DNA of 9,910 nucleotides from a virus (Duplodnaviria; Heunggongvirae; Uroviricota; Caudoviricetes): IMG/VR virus record IMGVR_UViG_2695420701_000018; one strand, written 5' to 3'. Shown piece after piece: positions 1 through 9,910 of this stretch. Both the position numbers and the translations under genes were made by a program. The notes beneath the pieces were generated by a model. It had not been told where the DNA came from. It was given only the letters and a program-made list of their open reading frames with translations, and did not search any database. Numbering within the stretch: position 1 is the first letter of the stretch; every line of letters begins with the position of its first letter.

Positions 1-576
1 GGCGGTAATCCTCCGGCATTTTCCCTGACACCGGACGGAAAACTGACCGCTAAAAATGCAGATATCAGTGGCAGTGTGAATGCGAACGCCGGGACGCTCA
101 ACAATGTCACAATTAATGAGAACTGTCAGATTAAGGGGAAACTGTCAGCCAACCAGATTGAAGGCGATATAGTCAAAACAGTGGGTAAGGCTTTTCCGCG
201 GGACTCCCGGGCACCGGAGCGGTGGCCATCAGGGACCATTACCGTCAGGATTTATGACGATCAGCCTTTTGACAGGCAAATTGTTATTCCGGCGGTGGCA
301 TTCAGCGGCGCTAAACATGAGCGGGAGAATAACGATATTTATTCGTCATGCCGCCTGATAGTACGGAAAAACGGTGCTGAAATTTATAACCGTACCGCGC
401 TGGATAATACGCTGATTTACAGTGGTGTTATTGATATGCCAGCTGGTCGCGGCCACATGACGCTGGAGTTTTCGGTGTCAGCATGGCTGGTGAATAACTG
501 GTATCCCACAGCAAGTATCAGCGATTTGCTGGTTGTGGTGATGAAGAAAGCCACCGCAGGCATCAGTATCAGCTGA
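1..576 (+). CDS. J: Tail tip / host-specificity protein J, C-terminal fragment (5' end lies outside the window)
   Basis: Frame 1 is open from base 1 to the TGA at 574-576. The translation ([28 protein letters not shown] ... DMPAGRG ... GISIS) matches my recollection of the C-terminal receptor-binding end of lambda gpJ, and it sits directly upstream of lom as in lambda. The ORF-track start at 76 is an internal Met. Confidence 0.85.
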
Positions 577-594
577 ATTTTATAACCCATATAC

Positions 595-620
595 GGGCGC
601 CAGAAATGGCGCCTTTTTTA
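595..620 (+). terminator. Rho-independent terminator after J
   Basis: GGCGCC (596-601), loop AGAAAT, GGCGCC (608-613) forms a GC stem, followed by TTTTTT (614-619). Confidence 0.55.
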
Positions 621-643
621 TTGCAGAAAAGCGAGAGGTAATT

Positions 644-1243
644 ATGCGTAAAGTTTGTGCAGCCATTTTGTCCGCAGCCATTTGCCTGGCCGTATCCGGT
701 GCGCCTGCATGGGCGTCTGAACATCAGTCCACACTGAGCGCGGGGTATCTTCATGCCCGTACGAACGCTCCCGGCAGCGATAATCTGAACGGGATTAACG
801 TGAAATACCGTTATGAGTTTACGGACGCGCTGGGGCTGATTACGTCCTTCAGTTATGCCAATGCTGAGGATGAGCAAAAAACGCACTACAGCGATACCCG
901 CTGGCATGAAGATTCCGTGCGTAACCGCTGGTTCAGCGTGATGGCGGGGCCGTCTGTACGCGTGAATGAATGGTTCAGCGCGTATGCGATGGTGGGTGTG
1001 GCTTACAGCCGTGTGTCGACTTTCTCCGGGGATTATCTCCGCGTAACTGACAACAAGGGGAAAACGCACGATGTGCTGACCGGAAGTGATGACGGTCGCC
1101 ACAGCAACACGTCTCTGGCGTGGGGGGCTGGCGTGCAGTTTAACCCGACCGAATCCGTGACCATTGACCTTGCTTATGAAGGTTCCGGTAGTGGTGACTG
1201 GCGAACGGATGCATTTATTGTTGGTATCGGATACCGTATCTGA
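644..1243 (+). CDS. lom: Outer-membrane beta-barrel protein Lom (Ail/Lom/PagC family), lysogenic-conversion type gene
   Basis: 199 aa with an N-terminal signal peptide (MRKVCAAILSAAICLAVSGAPAWA). The C-terminus AYEGSGSGDWRTDAFIVGIGYRI matches the lambda Lom C-terminal beta-strand region as I recall it. GAGG RBS 7 nt upstream. Canonical position between J and stf. Confidence 0.9.
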   Translation: MRKVCAAILSAAICLAVSGAPAWASEHQSTLSAGYLHARTNAPGSDNLNGINVKYRYEFTDALGLITSFSYANAEDEQKTHYSDTRWHEDSVRNRWFSVMAGPSVRVNEWFSAYAMVGVAYSRVSTFSGDYLRVTDNKGKTHDVLTGSDDGRHSNTSLAWGAGVQFNPTESVTIDLAYEGSGSGDWRTDAFIVGIGYRI

Positions 1244-1347
1244 CAACAGACGCCGATTTATCTTCTGTAAATATTGTTATGATACGCAGGTTCATCCACC
1301 TTATGGGGTGAACTGCGTTTGAGGAAACGTAAAGTTACACTGTCCTG

Positions 1348-1380
1348 AAGCCCGTGGCGTCACTGCTGCGGGCTTTTTTT
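1348..1380 (+). terminator. Rho-independent terminator after lom
   Basis: AAGCCCG (1348-1354) pairs with CGGGCTT (1369-1375), followed by a T-run through 1380. Confidence 0.55.
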
Positions 1381-1394
1381 ATTGGTGGAAAAGT

Positions 1395-4151
1395 ATGACA
1401 GTAAAAATTTCTGGCGTGCTTAAAGATGGCACAGGAAAACCAGTACAGAACTGCACCATTGTGCTGAAGGCCAGACGAACCAGCAGCACGATGGTGGTGA
1501 ACACGGTGGCCTCTGAAAATCCGGATGAAGCCGGACGTTACAGCATGGATGTTGAGCATGGTCAGTACAGCGTCACCCTGCTGGTTGAAGGTTTTCCGCC
1601 TTCACATGCCGGGACCATTACCGTCTATGAAGGTTCCAGACCAGGTACGCTGAATGATTTTCTCGGTGCCATGACGGAGGATGATGTCCGACCGGAGGCA
1701 CTGCGCCGCTTTGAGCAGATGGTGGAAGAGGTGTCACGTAACGCCTCCGCGGTTGCACAGAATACGGCAGCCGCGAAAAAATCAGCCAGCGAGGCGGCAA
1801 CTCATGCAACCGATGCTGCAGCCTCAGCACGTGCCGCCAGCACGTCAGCCGGACAGGCCGCGTCGTCGGCTCAGTCAGCGTCTTCCAGCGCAGGAACGGC
1901 ATCGACAAAGGCCCGTGAAGCAGCAAAAAGTGCTGCTGCAGAGTCATCAAAAAGCGCGGCAGCTACCAGCGCCAGTGCCGCGAAAACGTCAGAAACGAAT
2001 GCCGCAGCATCACAAAAATCGGCAGCCACTTCTGCATCCACAGCGACCACGAAGGCGTCAGAAGCTGCCACCTCGGCACGGGGTGCGGCGGCCTCAAAAG
2101 AGGCAGCGAAATCTTCAGAAACGAATGCATCATCAAGTGCCAGTAGTGCAGCTTCCTCGGCAACGGCGGCAGGAAATTCCGCGAAGGCGGCAAAAACGTC
2201 CGAGACGAACGCTAAGTCTTCTGAAACAGCAGCGGGACAGAGCGCCTCAGCTGCGGCAGGTTCAAAAACAGCGGCTGCATTATCTGCCAGTGCCGCGTCA
2301 ACAAGTGCCGGGCAGGCCTCAGCCAGTGCCACCGCCGCCGGAAAATCGGCAGAAAGCGCCGCATCATCCGCTTCAACAGCCACAACGAAGGCTGGCAAAG
2401 CCACTGAGCAAGCCACTGCAGCAGCGAGGTCTGCTTCTGCAGCAAAAACCTCTGAAACAAATGCAAAGACTTCAGCAGACAATGCTGCTTCCTCTAAGGC
2501 AGCAGCCGCATCGTCAGCCAGTTCAGCGGCGTCATCGGCATCATCTGCGTCTGCTTCAAAAGATGAGGCGACCAGACAAGCGTCAGCAGCGAAAGGTAGT
2601 GCCACGACAGCAACAACGAAAGCATCAGAGGCGGCAGGCAGTGCGACGGCTGCATCTCAGAGCAAAGTTGCTGCTGAATCCGCGGCAACGCGCGCCGAGA
2701 CAGCAGCAAAACGGGCAGAGGATATTGCATCCGCCGTGGCGCTTGAGGATGCGAGCACGACGAAAAAGGGGATAGTACAGCTCAGCAGTGCGACCAACAG
2801 CACTTCCGAGTCACTGGCGGCAACGCCAAAAGCGGTTAAGGCGGTAATGGGTGAAACGAACAAGAAAGCGCCCTTAAATAGTCCTGCACTGACCGGAACG
2901 CCAACAACACCAACTGCGCGACAGGGAACGAATAATACCCAAATCGCAAGCACGGCTTTCGTTATGGCTGCGATTGCCGCCCTTGTAGATTCGTCACCTG
3001 ATGCACTGAACACGCTGAACGAGCTGGCTGCGGCGCTGGGCAACGACCCGAATTTTGCGACCACCATGACTAACGCGCTTGCGGGTAAGCAACCGAAAGA
3101 TGCCACCCTGACGGCGCTGGCCGGACTTACTACTGCGGCAGGCAAGTTTCCGTATTTTACGGGGAATGATGTCGCCAGCCTGGCAACCCTGACAAAAGTC
3201 GGGCGGGATATTCTTGCGAAATCGACCGTTGCTGCCGTTATCGAATACCTCGGTTTACAGGAAACGGTAAACAAGGCTGGTAACGCCGTTCAGCGTTCCG
3301 GCGATAAAATGACCGGAGAACTGAAAATTGGCACGGTGAATGCGCTGCGAATTTTCAATGATACCTTCGGTCTAATTTTCCGTCGTTCAGAAGATTTTCT
3401 TCATTTCATTCCGACGGCTGAAGGACAAGGCGAAAACGGTAATATCGGCCCATTAAGGCCATTCGCTATAAATCTGAGAACAGGTGCTATATCTGTCAGC
3501 CACGGGGCCAAAATTAAAGGAGGTCTAGCTATTGGAGCTACTGATAACGCACTGGGTGAAAACTCCATTGTTCTGGGAGATAACGACACCGGATTTAGGC
3601 AAGATGGAGATGGTATTATTAGCTTCTATTCAAATGGTTCGCGCATCGGACATATTGATGAGTTAGGATTACATCTTTATAAAGATATTGAATCTAATGG
3701 CAGCAATTTTAGATTAAAAAGTAATTACCGCCACCACATTACATTCGCCAACGAAGACGGAAGAATTCGTATGTTTTTGTGGAAAGATAACGGTGGTGAT
3801 GGTGTTCATATTAATAACGGTTCAGATGGTGGTGGTGATTTCATTTTTAAAACAGATGGGGGATTTGCGCTGGGAAGTGGTGCGCAAGTTGCGTCTAGTG
3901 GCGATATTTATGGTTCAGTGTGGGAAAACAACTGGTTAAGCACATGGCTGCATAATCATGTCGTTCGGGATATTCGTCTTGGCAGCATTGAATATAAAAA
4001 CGTATGGCGCGACTACGGCTTTGGCGATGCGTCAGGTTATGTTTTAACAGCCGCAATTAACAGCAATGCGGATGATATTGTCGACACTGTTGCCAGAAGG
4101 CCAATTCAGAAATTGATTGGGGGAATATGGTACAACGTGGGGAGTGTTTAA
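1395..4151 (+). CDS. stf: Side tail fibre protein Stf, mosaic: lambda-like N-terminal two thirds, divergent C-terminal receptor-binding domain
   Basis: 918 aa. N-terminus [28 protein letters not shown] ... [14 protein letters not shown] matches lambda Stf as recalled. Long Ala/Ser/Thr-rich repeat region. Conserved region through GRDILAK...EYLG, then a different C-terminal domain containing the GDKMTGEL motif typical of distal tail-fibre domains. The domain after about base 3250 is visibly more AT-rich. Confidence 0.9.
1750..2770 (+). repeat. Low-complexity Ala/Ser/Thr-rich repeat tract inside stf (recurring AKTSETNA units)
   Basis: The unit A-K-[TS]-S-E-T-N-A recurs at least four times (nucleotide near-repeats beginning about 1979, 2107, 2191 and 2443). 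The GCN-rich composition generates the long spurious ORFs on other frames and the opposite strand. Confidence 0.7.
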
Positions 4152-4152
4152 G

Positions 4153-4680
4153 ATGATGCACCTGAAAAATATTAAGGCCGGGAATCCGAAAACACCGGAA
4201 CAATACCAGCTAACTAAAAAAGCGGGCGTGGTATGGCTCTTTTGCGAAGATGGCAAAAACTGGTATGAGGAACAAAAGAATTTTCAGCCAGACACCATAA
4301 AAATTGCTTACGATGAGAACAACATCATCGTTGCTGTCAGTAAAGACGTTTCAACTATTAATCCTGAAGGGCTAAGCATAGTTGAAGTTCCTGATATTAC
4401 GGCAAATCGTCACGCAGACAATAACGGAAAATGGATGTTTCTGGATGGTAAAGTAGTAAAGAGGGAATATACAGAACAGGAACTGCAACAACAGGCCGAA
4501 TCACAAAAGGCCGCATTGCTTTCCGAAGCTGAATCAGTCATCCAGCCGCTGGAACGCGCTGTCAGGCTGAATATGGCAACAGACGAGGAACGCACACGAC
4601 TGGAAGCATGGGAACGCTACAGTGTTCTGGTCAGCCGTGTGGACACTGCAAAACCTGAATGGCCACAAAAGCCCGGGTGA
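4153..4680 (+). CDS. tfa: Tail fibre assembly chaperone Tfa
   Basis: The C-terminus [31 protein letters not shown] resembles the conserved Tfa C-terminal motif (lambda Tfa ...LLEAWKKYRVLLNRVDTS...EWP). ATG at 4153 lies 1 nt after the stf stop (TAA 4149-4151) with GGGGAG 10-15 nt upstream. The ORF-track start at 4117 overlaps stf and is less likely. Confidence 0.8.
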
Positions 4681-4685
4681 AAACC

Positions 4686-4708
4686 AAGGCCCGAACGCCA
4701 GGCCTTTT
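4686..4708 (+). terminator. Weak putative terminator after tfa
   Basis: AAGGCC (4686-4691), 9-nt loop, GGCCTT (4701-4706) then TT. Short stem and short T-run, so tentative. Confidence 0.3.
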
Positions 4709-4816
4709 GCGAATACACCGGCATGCCAGAGTGGAAACAAATTGCGACGCACCAGTCCGTGCACATTTCTGACCGGGCAGCTATTCCAGAAAACAGCAGA
4801 CAAGAGAGGTACAGAT

Positions 4817-5560
4817 ATGTGGTTTCCGGCAAAACTGATGCTTCCGACAGGTAATATCACCCCCATAACATGTTCAGCTATGGCTGTACATCCGTGGGAT
4901 GTTGAAGCGGGGCACATTACGCCAGACGGTGCGTATTTAAGCCCTGTCAACGCAATAAACCACCTTAACAACAAACTCCCGGGCCTGACCGAAAACAGCG
5001 ATATCGCCATCATAATGGTAACAGGCAGCAATAATAACGATTTTATTCGTCAACTGTCAGCACTGGCAGACACACTCCCTTTACCCACTCTGACGCAGAC
5101 GCTAAGACGCGCAAGAACACAGCTCACCCAGGCAATCACCAGAATGCAAATCCCGGCGACACCACAGAACGGACTGCCCGCGCCACAACCACTTATTGCC
5201 AGCACACTACAGAACAGCATCAGTAACCACACCGCGCTTAACGCTATGAAGGCCGAAGGGCTGAACTCTGTCGACTCACTGAAAAACGCGTTATCCGGTT
5301 TTCAGGCACAACGTCAACGGTTGCAGCAACAGATAATCGCTGAACTGGCAGGAGCAGGCGATAAAGTGGCAAAAGCATTTGCGTTCGTGCATACCGGCGA
5401 CGCCGTTTTAGCCCGCCGGGAAATGATGAAAAATATTCCGCACCCCACAGCTTCACTGACGTATGCACACCTGTTCGCAGGCGATCTTTCCGGGATGCTG
5501 AACTGGATAACGAAGGCAGAAAATGAGCCAGAACACGACAACGCCACTGCTGGCCCTTAA
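4817..5560 (+). CDS. Hypothetical protein, first gene of a three-gene accessory module
   Basis: ATG at 4817 with AGAGAGG 7-13 nt upstream; 247 aa to the stop at 5558-5560. The longer ORF-track version begins with GTG at 4622 inside tfa and is less likely. No motif I recognise. Q/L/A-rich central segment (RQRLQQQIIAELAGAG) may be helical. Confidence 0.55.
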   Translation: MWFPAKLMLPTGNITPITCSAMAVHPWDVEAGHITPDGAYLSPVNAINHLNNKLPGLTENSDIAIIMVTGSNNNDFIRQLSALADTLPLPTLTQTLRRARTQLTQAITRMQIPATPQNGLPAPQPLIASTLQNSISNHTALNAMKAEGLNSVDSLKNALSGFQAQRQRLQQQIIAELAGAGDKVAKAFAFVHTGDAVLARREMMKNIPHPTASLTYAHLFAGDLSGMLNWITKAENEPEHDNATAGP

Positions 5561-6089
5561 TGGTCAGATAATCCCGCTAAAACGCTTAAGTGTCAGCGTG
5601 AAGCTGACCATCAAAGACAAAGACGCTTCCGGAAAATCCTCATCAACAGCGACTTCAGAACAGGGTGTAAAAGCCAAGGAGCTGCAGATTTCCGGACTGA
5701 TTCCGTTCACCCAGCCGGAAGCACTCACACGCTTATTTCGTCTGGCTGAAGCCAGAGCCGCTAACGGTGCACAACAGGTTTACCGCATCGCCAACATGGA
5801 TGCTAAAGCGGTCAATATGAAGCAAGGGATTTTTTCCGGTGCCGTGGGCGCAACTCCTGAAACAGGCCTGATGGCATGGAAAGTTGACTTCACTCTGAAA
5901 GAAAAACTCAGCAGTGCCGAAAAGGCGACAGGACGCGGCCCGGCTGGCAATCAGAGTGCTGAACAGCACGCACAGGCCGTCAAATCAGGTGGCAAAGGCG
6001 AAAAAAACGAAGAGCATGGCTGGTTCTGGAAAATGTCAGACAAACTCAATAACTGGATAGGCCCGGCAGGCAATGAAACCAATTCGTGA
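5523..6089 (+). CDS. Hypothetical protein, second gene of the module
   Basis: 188 aa. The start overlaps the upstream gene by 38 nt and the stop overlaps the next start by 17 nt, suggesting translational coupling. Lys/Gly-rich charged C-terminal tail. No recognised domain. Confidence 0.6.
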   Translation: MSQNTTTPLLALNGQIIPLKRLSVSVKLTIKDKDASGKSSSTATSEQGVKAKELQISGLIPFTQPEALTRLFRLAEARAANGAQQVYRIANMDAKAVNMKQGIFSGAVGATPETGLMAWKVDFTLKEKLSSAEKATGRGPAGNQSAEQHAQAVKSGGKGEKNEEHGWFWKMSDKLNNWIGPAGNETNS

Positions 6090-7761
6090 TCTCTGCATTA
6101 ACGGCAGGCGTTATCCTGTCGTGGAAGAAAACATCATGTTGCGTCTCAACGGCGCGGGAACCGGCTTTATCACCATTAACGCCGCCGACAATACTCCCCC
6201 GCTACGCGGCAAACCCGTAGAGCTGTCCATCGGTTACAACGATCAGCCTGTAAAGTGGTTTTCGGGATATGTGGAAAGTGACAGTTGTACAGGCAGAGGG
6301 CTGCACAAGCTGATGGTGCGCGAAGCTGCTGCTATTCTGCAATACCCGCTCAACATCTCCATGCAGCATCCGACGCTGAAACAGGTCGCAGGACACATTG
6401 AAGGCAATACAGGTTTACGCATACAACTCCCGAAGGCAGGCTACACCACCACTCCGGTCCCTCATCTGACCCACAATGGCAACGGTTATCAGCTGATGGC
6501 CATGCTTGGCCGCATATTCAGTATCCCGGATTACGTCTGGTATCCGTCGGTTGACGGCATCATCTACGCCGGAAGCTTTGCTGACTGCCGTTTTGCAAAA
6601 CGCCCTGCCAGATTGCCGGTCGATATCACCAGAGGTGATCACGGAGCAAATGGCTGGACAATACAGACGATTCCCATGATGCGCCCCGGCGTGGTCATGA
6701 ACGATCACCGTATAAATCAGGTACAGCTACAGGGTGACAGCATGATCATTAGCTGGAGTGATGGCCGTCAGTCGCCCGTACAACGCCAGATCGAAACCCT
6801 TTACCCCGAGATAGGCAACAAAACCCACCTTCCACGCATGGGACGCGTGATCTCACCAACTGAAAACACAACCCAGGGGGATTTGCATGATGAATTTCGC
6901 CCACGCTACGCCGTCAATGTGCAGTTGCTCGACGAGAACGGCACCCCCGACAAGGACACACCGGTATATAACGCCGTCCCCGTTCCTGTGCCAATGGCCG
7001 GCAATGAATCCGGGATATTCCAGTACCCGCCCGCAGGAACCATAGTTACACTGGCCCACGTTGACGGCAGGCCGGATAAACCCATCATCACCGGCACTCA
7101 CGCCAGCGGCCAGAGTCTGCCGGGAATAAAGCCCGGCGAACAACTACAACAGCAACGCGCAGAGGTATTCCAGCGTGTGCATACAGATGGCACATGGCAG
7201 CGTGAAACCGATCAGGTTATTCGTGAGAAATCCACCGACCGCATCATCCAGAACACAACGGAAACGCGCACCAGTACCACTCGTAATATTACCGTAAAGG
7301 CCAACAACACCATAACGGTGCTCGGCACTCATAAGCTGATGAGCGGCCACATACAGCACATCGCAGACGGTGACTATGCCGTAGCCGCCACGAAGAAACT
7401 GATACAGCACGCCGACAACGCTGAACTCGACGTTACTCACCAGTGGCAAACCAGCACAGAAAGCGCCACCCACAATGTGGCGAAAACGCTGGAAGAAAAG
7501 ATTGGCCGGATTAAAAAATCCGTCGCTGGCCAGATGCAACAGATCATCGCCCCGCAGGTCTGGTTTGGCAGCAATACCATCAACACACTTAACCTCATGC
7601 TGGATCTTTGCGACACCGTTCAGCAACTGGCGCAGCTCACCGCACAACACACTCATACCAACAACGGGTCGTCACAGCCCACCAACAGCGGCAGCATAGA
7701 CACGGTGGCATCAATGGCAGGCAACCTGAAAGCGAAGTACAGTACCGTGATTAAGCAGTAA
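6073..7761 (+). CDS. Hypothetical protein with spike-like (gpV / gp5 / VgrG-type) OB-fold signature and C-terminal HTH tip motif
   Basis: 562 aa. Residues about 305-346 (GNESGIFQYPPAGTIVTLAHVDGRPDKPIITGTHASG) follow the pattern I recall from the phage baseplate spike OB-fold (P2 gpV PSVGEQVLILAVGGELDTAFVLPGIYSG; VgrG PEVGDEVLVAFEHGDPRRPYVLG). A T/N/I-rich segment follows (NITVKANNTITVLGTHKLMSGHIQHI) and QHTHT lies near the C-terminus (P2 gpV has HTHKH near its tip). Pattern recognition from memory, not a computed alignment. Confidence 0.7.
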   Translation: MKPIRDLCINGRRYPVVEENIMLRLNGAGTGFITINAADNTPPLRGKPVELSIGYNDQPVKWFSGYVESDSCTGRGLHKLMVREAAAILQYPLNISMQHPTLKQVAGHIEGNTGLRIQLPKAGYTTTPVPHLTHNGNGYQLMAMLGRIFSIPDYVWYPSVDGIIYAGSFADCRFAKRPARLPVDITRGDHGANGWTIQTIPMMRPGVVMNDHRINQVQLQGDSMIISWSDGRQSPVQRQIETLYPEIGNKTHLPRMGRVISPTENTTQGDLHDEFRPRYAVNVQLLDENGTPDKDTPVYNAVPVPVPMAGNESGIFQYPPAGTIVTLAHVDGRPDKPIITGTHASGQSLPGIKPGEQLQQQRAEVFQRVHTDGTWQRETDQVIREKSTDRIIQNTTETRTSTTRNITVKANNTITVLGTHKLMSGHIQHIADGDYAVAATKKLIQHADNAELDVTHQWQTSTESATHNVAKTLEEKIGRIKKSVAGQMQQIIAPQVWFGSNTINTLNLMLDLCDTVQQLAQLTAQHTHTNNGSSQPTNSGSIDTVASMAGNLKAKYSTVIKQ

Positions 7762-7893
7762 GTTTACAGATGAGAAGAGGTGCACAGGCAGCCCGGCTTA
7801 CCATTCAAGAATCATGCCACAAAATACAGACAAATAAGCATTTCGTGAAATTATTCATATATCAATAAATTTCATTCATCGAACCAGACGAAA

Positions 7894-7909
7894 GCCCGTC
7901 GCGACGGGC
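7894..7909. other. Perfect 16-bp palindrome GCCCGTCGCGACGGGC in the non-coding region
   Basis: Verified by reverse-complementing. It lies 133 bp downstream of the 6073-7761 stop, with an AT-rich tract containing a TGAAATT/AATTTCA inverted repeat (7846-7874) just upstream. Possible protein-binding site, hairpin or recombination site. Confidence 0.3.
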
Positions 7910-8403
7910 ATTCCCCCAGAAAAACACCCCCCCACCAGACGCGCTGTATCGCATTCTGCAACATGCTTTAAGCAAATAAACGCGCGAGTCACCCTGAATT
8001 CAGCTCGTAACGCCTGAAAGCGTACACGCACGCTACGTGGATATTTCACGGCATGATGAGCCCAACACACGGCACGGGCGCAAGCCCCCCGCGCTTGCAC
8101 TCTTTACGATAAAAATTTTTTGCCAAATAAATTTGCGCAAAACGACACTCCAGATCGCGCCAGCACTGGCGCTTTACAAAAAAGCCATCTGGCACAAAGT
8201 GTCAAAGATTGCCAGGCTTTGCCAGATTAACGTTAAAAAAGGATCTGACAGAAAAATTAACCATATGAAAAACAAAACTATTTTTTGCTTTCGTCATTTT
8301 AAAGGATCTGAATGCCGCCAAAGTGCCACGCACAGGAACCACTTAACGCAATGAAATAAAAGGTAAAAACAAAACATTGGACAAGGATCGTTTTGGCGCA
8401 GCG

Positions 8404-8424
8404 TTACACAGTTTCACTGTGTAA
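8404..8424. promoter_or_regulatory. Inverted repeat TTACACAG-5 nt-CTGTGTAA upstream of the hok-like gene
   Basis: Perfect 8-bp arms separated by TTTCA, about 280 bp upstream of the hok start. Candidate operator or RNA structural element in the toxin leader. Confidence 0.25.
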
Positions 8425-8706
8425 CTATTTTCAGGCGCAAGCAAAAACCGCTCACGAAGGCAGCGACAAAAGCGGCAAAATTTTAACTTTCGCGGAGAAC
8501 CGAACGGGTGACGTGAAACTTTACGTAGCAGAGAAGCGGGAAATCAGTAGAATAATCGCGGGTGCCTTTCGGCTGATGGTCGGAGGGAATACCCGAAGGC
8601 CGGATGTGGAAAGGCCCCGGAAAACATTTCTGTTTAACCGAGGCCCTAACATATCTACCTTAAGCAAGTGATAGGTTAGCGCCTCTCCAACAAAGGAGCA
8701 AGCGCT

Positions 8707-8847
8707 ATGTCGCAAAAATCGCTTACGGCCATCACGTTCTGCGTGACGGCAATCCTCATCATCTGGATGCTGCACGGTTCGCTGTGTGAAATACGGATGA
8801 GCTTCTGGGGAGCGGAGTTTGCGGCGTTCTTACAGTGTAAACAGTAA
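8707..8847 (+). CDS. hok: Hok/Gef-family type I toxin (small membrane peptide), 46 aa
   Basis: Absent from the ORF track, presumably below its length cut-off. Translation MSQKSLTAITFCVTAILIIWMLHGSLCEIRMSFWGAEFAAFLQCKQ has one hydrophobic TM segment followed by SLCEIR ... E-x-AAF, as in Hok from plasmid R1 (...[26 protein letters not shown]) and HokA (...ELAAFLACKLKE). AGGAG RBS 8 nt upstream. A stable hairpin (8857-8878) and a terminator lie downstream. Confidence 0.7.
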   Translation: MSQKSLTAITFCVTAILIIWMLHGSLCEIRMSFWGAEFAAFLQCKQ

Positions 8848-8934
8848 GGAAACCGCGACGGGGGAGCAATCCCCCGTCAATCGGTTGCTAAGGTTGGCTG
8901 AAGTGGCACCCTATCTCACAGACGTGAACAACAA

Positions 8935-8967
8935 ACCCGCAGCGTAAGAACTGCGGGTTTTCTTTTT
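8935..8967 (+). terminator. Rho-independent terminator downstream of the hok-like gene (possibly bidirectional)
   Basis: ACCCGCAG (8935-8942), loop CGTAAGAA, CTGCGGGT (8951-8958), then TTTCTTTTT. On the minus strand the stem is followed by a weaker U-rich tract, so it may also terminate the 9036-9317 gene. Confidence 0.7.
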
Positions 8968-9035: not shown

Positions 9036-9317
9036 TTACTCAGCATTCTCCTGCTTCCATTGCCGGATCATTTCATCGGTAACATCACCCTCATAACATA
9101 CCACGTCATACCCTCCATTACGGCTATATGCACTGCGTCCACCACATCTACTACCATTCCTTGCATGATTATAAGGACACGCACAATTGCCTGGATAAGA
9201 TTCAATGGATTCTTTAATTATTTCTTTTTTGATCTGAGCATCAGACTTTCCTGTTGCTGCATATCCACTAAAAGATACTAAACAAAGGCAGATTGCCATT
9301 AATAAACCACATCGCAT
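9036..9317 (-). CDS. Small secreted Cys-containing protein (signal peptide plus about 70 aa mature domain), function unknown
   Basis: Probable start at the Met of MRCGLLMAICLCLVSFSGYAATG (complement of CAT at 9315-9317), a typical Sec signal peptide. The ORF-track N-terminal extension to 9431 has no signal-like character. Mature part contains CACPY...RCGGRSAYSRNGGYDVVCYEG with 4 Cys. AT-rich relative to neighbours. Confidence 0.6.
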   Translation of the reverse strand: MRCGLLMAICLCLVSFSGYAATGKSDAQIKKEIIKESIESYPGNCACPYNHARNGSRCGGRSAYSRNGGYDVVCYEGDVTDEMIRQWKQENAE

Positions 9318-9573
9318 ACCGATACACTCTATTACTAACCAATCATAGCCCACATCATAAAATCGAGATGAGGAGTACAATACCTTTAACAAGAAGGTGT
9401 CATAACGATAATATGTCGTGCAATTCATCAAAAAAAAGATCTATATCAAAGAGATAGAACTCTTATCAGTGCTTCAGACATCGGCATTCGAGGCAGCAGA
9501 AAAACAGTAAATCTGACGAATTTGCCTTTTCCCAAGATGTTGTCAGATTAAAAAAGATAGATTAGCGCAGGTA

Positions 9574-9717
9574 CCTGTTGGTGGATTGCAGGAGGAAAAA
9601 TGAAGTCGAGTGGAAAAATCCCAAAAAAATTTTTGTTTAACAGAGGTCCTGGTTCACTATGCGAAATACGGAGGAGCTGCAGAAGAATTCTGCTTCATCC
9701 TTAGAGTTTAAACAGCA
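9574..9717 (+). pseudogene. Decayed second copy of the hok-like locus (leader plus C-terminal coding remnant, N-terminal region deleted)
   Basis: 9574-9650 is alignable to 8576-8648 (both end in TGTTTAAC-GAGG-CCT) and 9651-9717 to 8776-8844 (GGTTC-CT-TG-GAAATACGGA...AGT-TAAACAG). The roughly 127 bp that in copy 1 carries the hok RBS, start codon and TM segment (8649-8775) is missing. The remnant frame reads LCEIRRSCRRILLHP-stop. Confidence 0.45.
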
Positions 9718-9793
9718 CGTGCACTACCATTGTTTCTGCATATCGCCACACCATCGCCACTCTACCGCCATTGCACAAAATACAAATACGAAA

Positions 9794-9813
9794 AAACCAC
9801 CCGAAGGTGGTTT
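9794..9813 (-). terminator. Rho-independent terminator downstream of the minus-strand tRNA
   Basis: AAACCACC (9794-9801), loop CGAA, GGTGGTTT (9806-9813). On the minus strand the stem is followed by UUUUUU (complement of the A-run 9791-9796), about 45 nt past the tRNA 3' end. Confidence 0.65.
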
Positions 9814-9856
9814 CACGACACTGCTTATTACTTTGATTTTATTCTTATCTTTCCCA

Positions 9857-9910
9857 TGGTACCCGGAGCGGGACTTGAACCCGCACAGCGCGAACGCCGA
9901 GGGATTTTAA
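9857..9910 (-). tRNA. leuZ: tRNA-Leu (anticodon UAA), 3' portion only; 5' part lies beyond the window
   Basis: Reverse complement of 9857-9910 reads TTAAAATCCCTCGGCGTTCGCGCTGTGCGGGTTCAAGTCCCGCTCCGGGTACCA: anticodon loop with UAA, long class II variable arm, T-arm GGTTCAAGTCC, acceptor stem and encoded CCA. Matches the E. coli leuZ sequence as I recall it. Confidence 0.85.

Follow-up and report, generated by a model that had tools for sequence, protein, structure and literature searches.

A hok pseudogene beside leuZ as the probable fossil of an older ogr–hok right end in a P2-like prophage

Introduction

Near the right-hand end of the viral DNA analysed here (the whole stretch of 9,910 nt, hereafter the window) lies an intact hok cassette (copy 1), and about 1 kb downstream of it, in the same orientation, a second segment in which only parts of a hok locus can be recognized (copy 2, hereafter the remnant). 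What is this segment: a recent duplicate of its neighbour that was then inactivated, an RNA that still acts, a stretch kept for its position beside an attachment site, or the residue of something older?

The hok/sok/mok (parB) locus of plasmid R1, in which translation of hok is coupled to mok, is the paradigm of type I toxin–antitoxin systems. In Escherichia coli K-12, hokA, hokC and hokE are reportedly disrupted by IS elements, and hokD/relF is said to be without its upstream regulatory part. Chromosomal hok/Sok loci have been proposed to be inactive (as summarised in preprint 10.1101/2025.08.07.668861), and a recent survey reports that hok is enriched in prophages. The remnant is unannotated in RefSeq, and a literature search found no paper describing it.

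Results

The downstream segment descends from a hok locus

Pairwise alignment of the two segments resolved two colinear blocks (Table 1). For the leader (8548–8647 against 9558–9650), the alignment score was 44 versus 16.8 ± 2.6 (maximum 29) for 300 shuffles (z ~10.7); for the 3′ coding part (8776–8844 against 9651–9715), the local alignment score was 46 versus 20.7 ± 2.6 (maximum 32) for 200 dinucleotide shuffles (z ~9.7). The identities of 70% (leader) and 71% (coding) are global values. With two colinear blocks at ~70% identity and z ~10, descent of the segment from the hok family is established by nucleotide homology. The counterparts of 8620–8647 and 8776–8811 are adjacent in copy 2 (9623–9650 and 9651–9686), where TGTTTAACAGAGGTCCT (9634–9650) is joined directly to GGTTCACTATGCGAAATACGG (9651–9671).

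Much of this agrees with a preliminary description of the locus, made from the letters of the window. The homology that it had noticed between two segments ~1 kb apart is above chance, the direct fusion of the leader to the LCEIR-coding part is confirmed at 9650/9651, and the loss of the hok ribosome-binding site, start codon and transmembrane part, which it put at about 127 bp, measures 128 bp (8648–8775) once the breakpoints are read from the alignment. Its span of 9574–9717 was slightly displaced: homology starts at 9558, with a weaker colinear extension from 9510, and ends at 9715.

The 21 nt of GGTTCACTATGCGAAATACGG differ from copy 1 at only three positions, all of them synonymous, and the frame is lost afterwards; this restriction to synonymous differences suggests that both genes diverged while still coding. 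In blastn searches, query positions 100–127 of the remnant led to annotated Hok/Gef coding sequences and positions 5–99 to the leaders upstream of them. The remnant is ~70% identical to every copy-1 allele tested, its neighbour being no closer than the others, and exact matches between it and copy 1 reach at most ~8–9 nt (judged by eye from the alignment). Among E. coli sequences, its next-best matches (~72%) belong to hok cassettes that are linked to ogr in P2-like prophages at other chromosomal sites; some of these cassettes directly adjoin bacterial flank (for example, ogr–hok–ihfA in O104:H4).

Table 1. Features of the right-hand part of the window (positions in window coordinates)
Feature	Position	Strand	Details
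Intact hok/sok cassette, copy 1	8548–8967	+	-10 box, hok mRNA leader, CDS, 3′ UTR with fbi element, terminator
Putative Sok antisense gene and promoter, copy 1	8605–8699	-	-35 TTGCTC, 17-bp spacer, -10 TAACCT
Copy 1 stretch without counterpart in the remnant	8648–8775	+	128 bp
hok CDS, copy 1 (46 aa)	8707–8847	+	Pfam HOK_GEF; RefSeq Hok/Gef family protein WP_000078916.1
AT-rich cargo ORF	9036–9317	-	93-aa Cys-rich protein, signal-peptide-like N-terminus, WP_001303543.1 (RefSeq)
Relic of ogr 3′ end, colinear with the hok remnant	9510–9532	+	19/23 nt match the last ogr codons of strain 55989 (L002 5936–5958)
Degenerate hok promoter of the remnant	9540–9563	+	-35 TTGTCA (9540–9545), -10 TAGATT (9558–9563), 12-bp spacer
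hok mRNA leader remnant (-10 box plus roughly 88 nt from the mRNA 5′ end)	9558–9650	+	70% identity to 8548–8647
hok 3′ coding remnant, from codon G24 (GSLCEIR)	9651–9715	+	71% identity to 8776–8844
Prophage-specific spacer, remnant to att repeat	9716–9787		Absent from K-12
attR copy of the att direct repeat	9788–9910		124 bp; extends one base beyond the window end
3′ETS-leuZ small RNA region and terminator (hairpin 9793–9814)	9788–9856	-	K-12 3′ETS-leuZ (b4759) at the homologous position
leuZ 3′ part, tRNA-Leu(UAA)	9857–9910	-	RefSeq tRNA-Leu at L001 10498–10584 (window 9857–9943); K-12 leuZ

Copy 1 is an intact hok/sok cassette

Copy 1 has the features of a bona fide hok locus: a Hok peptide that matches Pfam HOK_GEF at 29.9 bits (cut-off 22), a structured mRNA and a cassette identity to phage, to which a putative Sok can be added. 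The Rfam sok/hok-leader model RF01794 matches 8560–8717 (44.8 bits, E 1.3e-7, under the gathering score of 59). The RNA 8560–8965 folds with a minimum free energy of -182 kcal/mol (z -8.26), and its 5′ GGGUGCC pairs with GGCACCC near 8906–8912, forming the tac/fbi closure that characterizes hok mRNAs. The cassette is 97.6% identical to that of phage P88 and 92–94% identical to those of other P2-like (Xuanwuvirus) phages, and as this identity spans exactly 8548–8967, the cassette moves as a unit. Phages P88 and Chuche share the layout ogr/D–hok–cargo–attP/int, with ogr where annotated.

The sok promoter of copy 1 was placed by analogy with that of plasmid R1, which we take to be TTGCGC-17-TATCCT. 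It would lie at ~8673–8699, with the Sok RNA predicted to run from ~8666 down to 8605 on the minus strand; a promoter scan did not call it. A mok-like frame overlapping hok is absent from copy 1, where stops at 8661–8674, as read from the sequence, close both other frames; the position that would correspond to the R1 mok AUG reads AUA here.

Among lineages, the loop of the presumed Sok-target hairpin, which on the other strand would be the Sok 5′ end (8651–8665, also 8689–8692), is hypervariable: sequences differ in pairwise comparison by ~17% on average and show small indels, against an almost invariant hok CDS beside it (0.5–3%). Such hypervariability would fit diversified Sok/hok pairing specificity among co-resident cassettes. 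In strain NCTC9040 (L014 306–1468), ogr and hok are separated by an IS3 element that has taken the place of the first ~35 nt of the hok leader (window-equivalent 8549–8585), which recalls the IS-inactivated hok loci of K-12. In SCU-124 (L012) and in loci L013 and L005/L011, most of the prophage has been lost, and the block ogr–hok–ORF–remnant still stands beside leuZ; this persistence would fit retention of an intact hok/sok by addiction.

Elements of hok/sok lost from the remnant

The deleted 128 bp comprise, in copy 1, the sokT hairpin loop, the putative sok promoter, the 5′ part of Sok, and the hok Shine–Dalgarno sequence, ATG and codons 1–23 (transmembrane helix); that is, the homologue of the putative sok promoter and Sok-pairing region (8648–8699) together with the N-terminal half of the toxin. 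No hok ORF is left: in addition to the missing start, a net 4-nt deletion has shifted the frame of the remaining coding part, which also lacks a stop codon. Nor is there an antisense Sok gene, as the homologue of its putative promoter and recognition part falls inside the deletion; the stem of the putative Sok terminator hairpin is, as read from the sequence, non-complementary in copy 2.

The remaining elements have fared no better. The copy-1 promoter of strain 55989 reads TTGCCG-17 bp-TAGATT, and the aligned remnant is short by 3 + 2 bases; a short spacer (11–12 bp) is common to all lineages, a promoter scan called nothing at 9540–9563, and the remnant's own promoter is probably inactive. 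Downstream, a comparison of 9716–9787 with the 3′ UTR, fbi element and terminator of copy 1 gave a best local score of 13, matched by 421 of 500 shuffles, and a terminator scan found no plus-strand terminator before that of leuZ. The structure of the hok mRNA is likewise gone, with folding z values of +0.61 (plus strand) and +0.57 (minus strand) against -8.26 for copy 1; a conserved RNA structure in the remnant was therefore rejected, the thermodynamic signal being absent on both strands. At E ≤ 1, the remnant was not matched by RF01794, whose sole match in the whole window is copy 1.

Base composition and variation are those of decay. The GC content of the remnant is 40–43% versus 52–55% in copy 1 (40% versus 55% for the leader), and substitutions relative to copy 1 are AT-biased, with 26 strong-to-weak and 9 weak-to-strong changes. 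Divergence between lineages amounts to 9–16% in the remnant, the most variable stretch nearby, versus 1–3% in the neighbouring ORF and the hok CDS; for 9737–9786 it is 4.7%, below that of the remnant. The only ORF to cross the junction, of 34 codons (9600–9704), is preceded by an AGGAGG Shine–Dalgarno sequence and runs in frame into GSLCEIR. It was rejected as a gene, since in the O145, strain 167 and 22AR0750 lineages it is broken by a 1-nt indel in an A/T run or by a stop. Having passed only the test of descent and failed every test for a functional hok/sok locus, the remnant is an ordinary pseudogene.

The remnant lies inside a P2-like prophage at leuZ

The final 1.5 kb of the window are 99.7–99.9% identical to the chromosomes of E. 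coli VL40 and other strains. In VL40, the RefSeq order is phage tail genes, Hok/Gef protein, a small hypothetical gene on the opposite strand, tRNA-Leu, tRNA-Cys, tRNA-Gly, pgsA and uvrC. ARAGORN reports no tRNA in the window, because leuZ is cut by its end. Strain 55989 carries an exact 124-bp direct repeat, at L010 4028–4151 (beside int) and 39672–39795 (beside leuZ), which extends from the 3′ETS-leuZ terminator as far as the anticodon loop and so takes in the 3′ half of leuZ; between the two repeats the order is int ... capsid/tail genes ... D, ogr, hok, ORF, remnant. In nearly all E. coli genomes, similarity to the window begins at ~9788, and K-12 and most other E. coli lack everything to the left of that position. 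As these strains share only 9788 onward, the remnant must be part of the prophage, with 72 bp between it and the repeat. The segment thus belongs to the right end of a P2-like (Peduoviridae) prophage at leuZ, located between att repeats and downstream of D/ogr. Prophage insertion at leuZ is known from STEC in the literature.

The genes upstream of 8548 differ from the layout of 55989, so that the arm is mosaic in this window. Positions 1–8556 of the window, like the corresponding region of five other strains, depart from the usual P2-like D–ogr layout of 55989; they encode a DUF2590 protein, baseplate J, a tail fibre and a 562-aa Vgr-type protein, and an unannotated 105-codon ORF (8037–8354) stands in place of ogr. 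The switch between layouts sits right at the hok -10/+1 of copy 1 (~8556), and copy 1 therefore has a different -35 region here (GTAGCA, a poor match). Three weak matches to isrG (Rfam; 19–27 bits against a gathering score of 100) fall in the tail-fibre gene, at 1951–2712 on the minus strand, and are almost certainly due to chance or driven by repeats.

The 124-bp att repeat also means that the prophage carries a copy of the 3′ETS-leuZ small-RNA sponge. Since the repeat holds 3′ETS-leuZ, the copy on the expressed leuZ is supplied by the phage after integration and an orphan is left at attL. The copy in the window differs from those of 55989 and K-12 at two positions (G at 9790, A at 9831).

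Between the two hok copies lies an ORF on the minus strand (Table 1) whose product passed the cut-off of none of the Pfam families; tblastn against 50,697 phage records gave no match either. Divergence of the ORF among lineages is only 1–2%. Kinship of the cargo ORF of P88 to this ORF was considered and rejected; the two are unrelated.

The same junction recurs in diverged lineages

Some 615–640 of 5,426 complete E. coli genomes carry the remnant. In 615 of them at least 80% of it is covered, and all 31 matches sampled (99–100% coverage) are a single colinear piece. The junction was further read from alignments of 55 related loci taken from RefSeq, IMG/VR (27 loci) and metagenomes (21 loci). 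All 55 show the same fusion; they comprise 26 distinct sequences in about five lineages, which reach down to 82.6% identity to the window across the remnant and differ from each other by up to 17%. In O157:H7 (Sakai, EDL933), the remnant and the neighbouring ORF are present, and IS30 stands in place of copy 1; strains 55989 and O145:H28 RM13514 carry both copy 1 and the remnant.

An intact copy 2 was absent from the sampled complete E. coli genomes, phage records, plasmids, IMG/VR (27 loci) and metagenomes (21 loci). A blastn search of 50,697 phage records with 9440–9790 gave no match. No free sequenced phage among these records was found to carry the leuZ arm. The IMG/VR matches are colinear with it and, to judge by their record names, may be prophages called from isolate genomes. 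The two matches in plasmid records, of 1.4 Mb and 0.44 Mb, are taken to be mislabelled pieces of chromosome. A species-level genome scan was run with AGGAGGAAAAATGAAGT, a generic Shine–Dalgarno-plus-ATG string, and among the matches listed only unrelated taxa appeared.

A trace of ogr precedes the remnant

Upstream of the hok remnant, the colinear homology runs into what may be the last codons of ogr. The ogr tail with the intergenic part scored 32, compared with 18.9 ± 2.4 (maximum 29) for shuffles, and the tail gave a blastn E of 0.013 in a small search; protein-level support was looked for and none was found. At 23 nt, this similarity is short and only moderately significant, and we treat it as moderate evidence of homology. 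Because the homology extends colinearly into the tail of ogr, the segment resembles the fossil of an earlier ogr–hok right end, which would fit arrangements such as that of O104:H4, in which ogr–hok directly borders bacterial DNA.

Discussion

We consider it very probable that ~9510–9715 is a non-functional fossil of an older ogr–hok/sok right-end module of a P2-like (Peduoviridae) prophage in leuZ. In P2-like phages of this group, ogr is followed by a hok/sok cassette, variable cargo and attP, and the leuZ-integrating lineage would once have had such an ogr–hok unit directly beside attP. A second, intact ogr–hok cassette (copy 1) and the AT-rich cargo ORF would later have been placed upstream of the old unit, presumably through recombination with a related phage or through tandem lysogeny followed by deletion; that the old unit came first and copy 1 later is what we infer, from position only. 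The old unit would then have decayed: ogr may have been cut to its last ~23 nt and the spacer of the hok promoter shrunk to 12 bp; 128 bp would have been lost with the Sok promoter, pairing region, hok start and transmembrane helix; the leftover coding part would have been frameshifted, the 3′ UTR with fbi and terminator lost, and the rest have drifted towards A and T. On this account, the remnant would do nothing and would persist as a passenger, owing to its place between the att repeat and a conserved cargo gene.

Some observations count against the fossil. That a neutral segment of 160 bp has survived while diverging by up to 17%, its further indels all being small, could be a sign of some constraint; recombination mosaicism, and not selection, may explain why the flanks diverge less. 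Moreover, the remnant and the cargo ORF are absent from all deposited phage genomes searched (50,697 records).

Could the remnant instead be a functional RNA? It might be a small RNA derived from the leader, an antisense product of read-through from glyW–cysT–leuZ, or a transcript convergent on 3′ETS-leuZ, each of which might affect hok copy 1 or the 3′ETS-leuZ sponge through cross-talk. All carriers do retain the architecture, the -35 and -10 hexamers are each recognisable, and the remnant, which faces the leuZ terminator, follows directly downstream of it. However, those hexamers are 12 bp apart, neither strand has any structure signal, no Rfam family matches, and the strong terminator hairpin with its U-tract parts the remnant from leuZ. 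Because the Sok-pairing region is deleted, the Sok of copy 1 has no target in the remnant, nor can the remnant produce Sok itself; exact matches to copy 1 that extend no further than ~8–9 nt, and the position of the remnant as the most variable stretch of its neighbourhood, also speak against such a role. We therefore regard a functional RNA as very improbable. The leader- or antisense-like cross-talk with copy 1 suggested in the preliminary description is not supported either: with the putative sok promoter and the pairing region gone, a 12-bp spacer, no structure and no Rfam match, it looks unlikely from the sequence.

A recent local duplication of hok, one copy of which was then inactivated by deletion, would account for two homologous segments 1 kb apart in the same orientation, one of them deleted internally. 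The reading first proposed was that of a duplicated locus with one copy inactivated by deletion, and its half concerning inactivity holds. A recent origin is not supported: identity is ~70%, no higher to the neighbour than to copy 1 of other strains or to ogr-linked cassettes elsewhere (~72%), the identical junction occurs in about five diverged lineages, and the exclusively synonymous differences in the first 21 nt past the junction suggest divergence while coding. The presence of the ogr tail within the relic further implies that the ancestral unit was ogr–hok, not hok alone. The intact second copy that might have been expected in related genomes was found neither in the 55 aligned loci nor among the sampled E. 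coli matches. A recent duplication is thus very unlikely.

The segment might also have been kept as part of a functional attP arm, with arm-type integrase, IHF or Cox sites, its hok ancestry being incidental. That it occurs in every carrier and lies towards ogr, ~70–230 bp from the att-repeat edge, would suit such a role, as would the better conservation of 9737–9786 (4.7%) relative to the remnant. But tyrosine integrases that target tRNA genes usually cross over in the anticodon loop, and if that is so here the remnant is ~195–350 bp away, beyond typical arm sites; moreover, it is more variable than its flanks. We attach a very low probability to this explanation.

The chance is slighter still that the relic was co-opted, with a transcript from a residual promoter in the leader relic, or from read-through past the leuZ terminator, that overlaps or converges on the phage-supplied 3′ETS-leuZ and so tunes the RyhB/RybB sponge of the host or the expression of the adjacent secreted cargo protein. 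Finally, that the similarity is due to chance or low complexity, as the AT-rich remnant with its runs of A and T might invite one to think, is practically negligible given two colinear blocks each ~10 s.d. above shuffles and independent blastn links to annotated Hok/Gef CDSs and leaders.

How does the fossil compare with known systems? Copy 1 resembles R1 hok/sok/mok in its ~400-nt structured mRNA, 5′ tac/3′ fbi closure, putative antisense promoter at the homologous place and HOK_GEF peptide, although it is without a mok-like frame overlapping hok; the remnant shares sequence ancestry only. Like the inactivated hok loci of K-12, the remnant has lost elements for regulated toxin expression. Unlike in those loci, its lesion is an internal 128-bp deletion of the antitoxin promoter/pairing region and the N-terminal half of the toxin, with further lesions besides, and whereas hokD of K-12 still encodes a toxic peptide, the remnant keeps no toxin ORF. 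The nearest intact relative of both of its segments (~70–72%) is the hok/sok cassette linked to ogr in P2-like (Xuanwuvirus/P88-like) phages, of which copy 1 is a member (97.6% to P88) and which occupies the same place after ogr, near attP/attR; unlike that cassette, the remnant is without toxin start and transmembrane segment, Sok region, 5′–3′ closing structure and terminator. Phage records label the ogr-linked cassette ‘MokW-like host killing’; a relative of the cassette is hokW–sokW of Stx phage Sp5 (PMC8621323).

The remnant is thus one more decayed type I toxin–antitoxin locus, and such loci are familiar from the E. coli chromosome. For annotators, it is a defined pseudogene, and the site should not be counted as a second hok locus. 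It is also a modest marker of prophage history, suggesting that the leuZ P2-like lineage once had ogr–hok at attP and later acquired a second ogr–hok together with a cargo gene.
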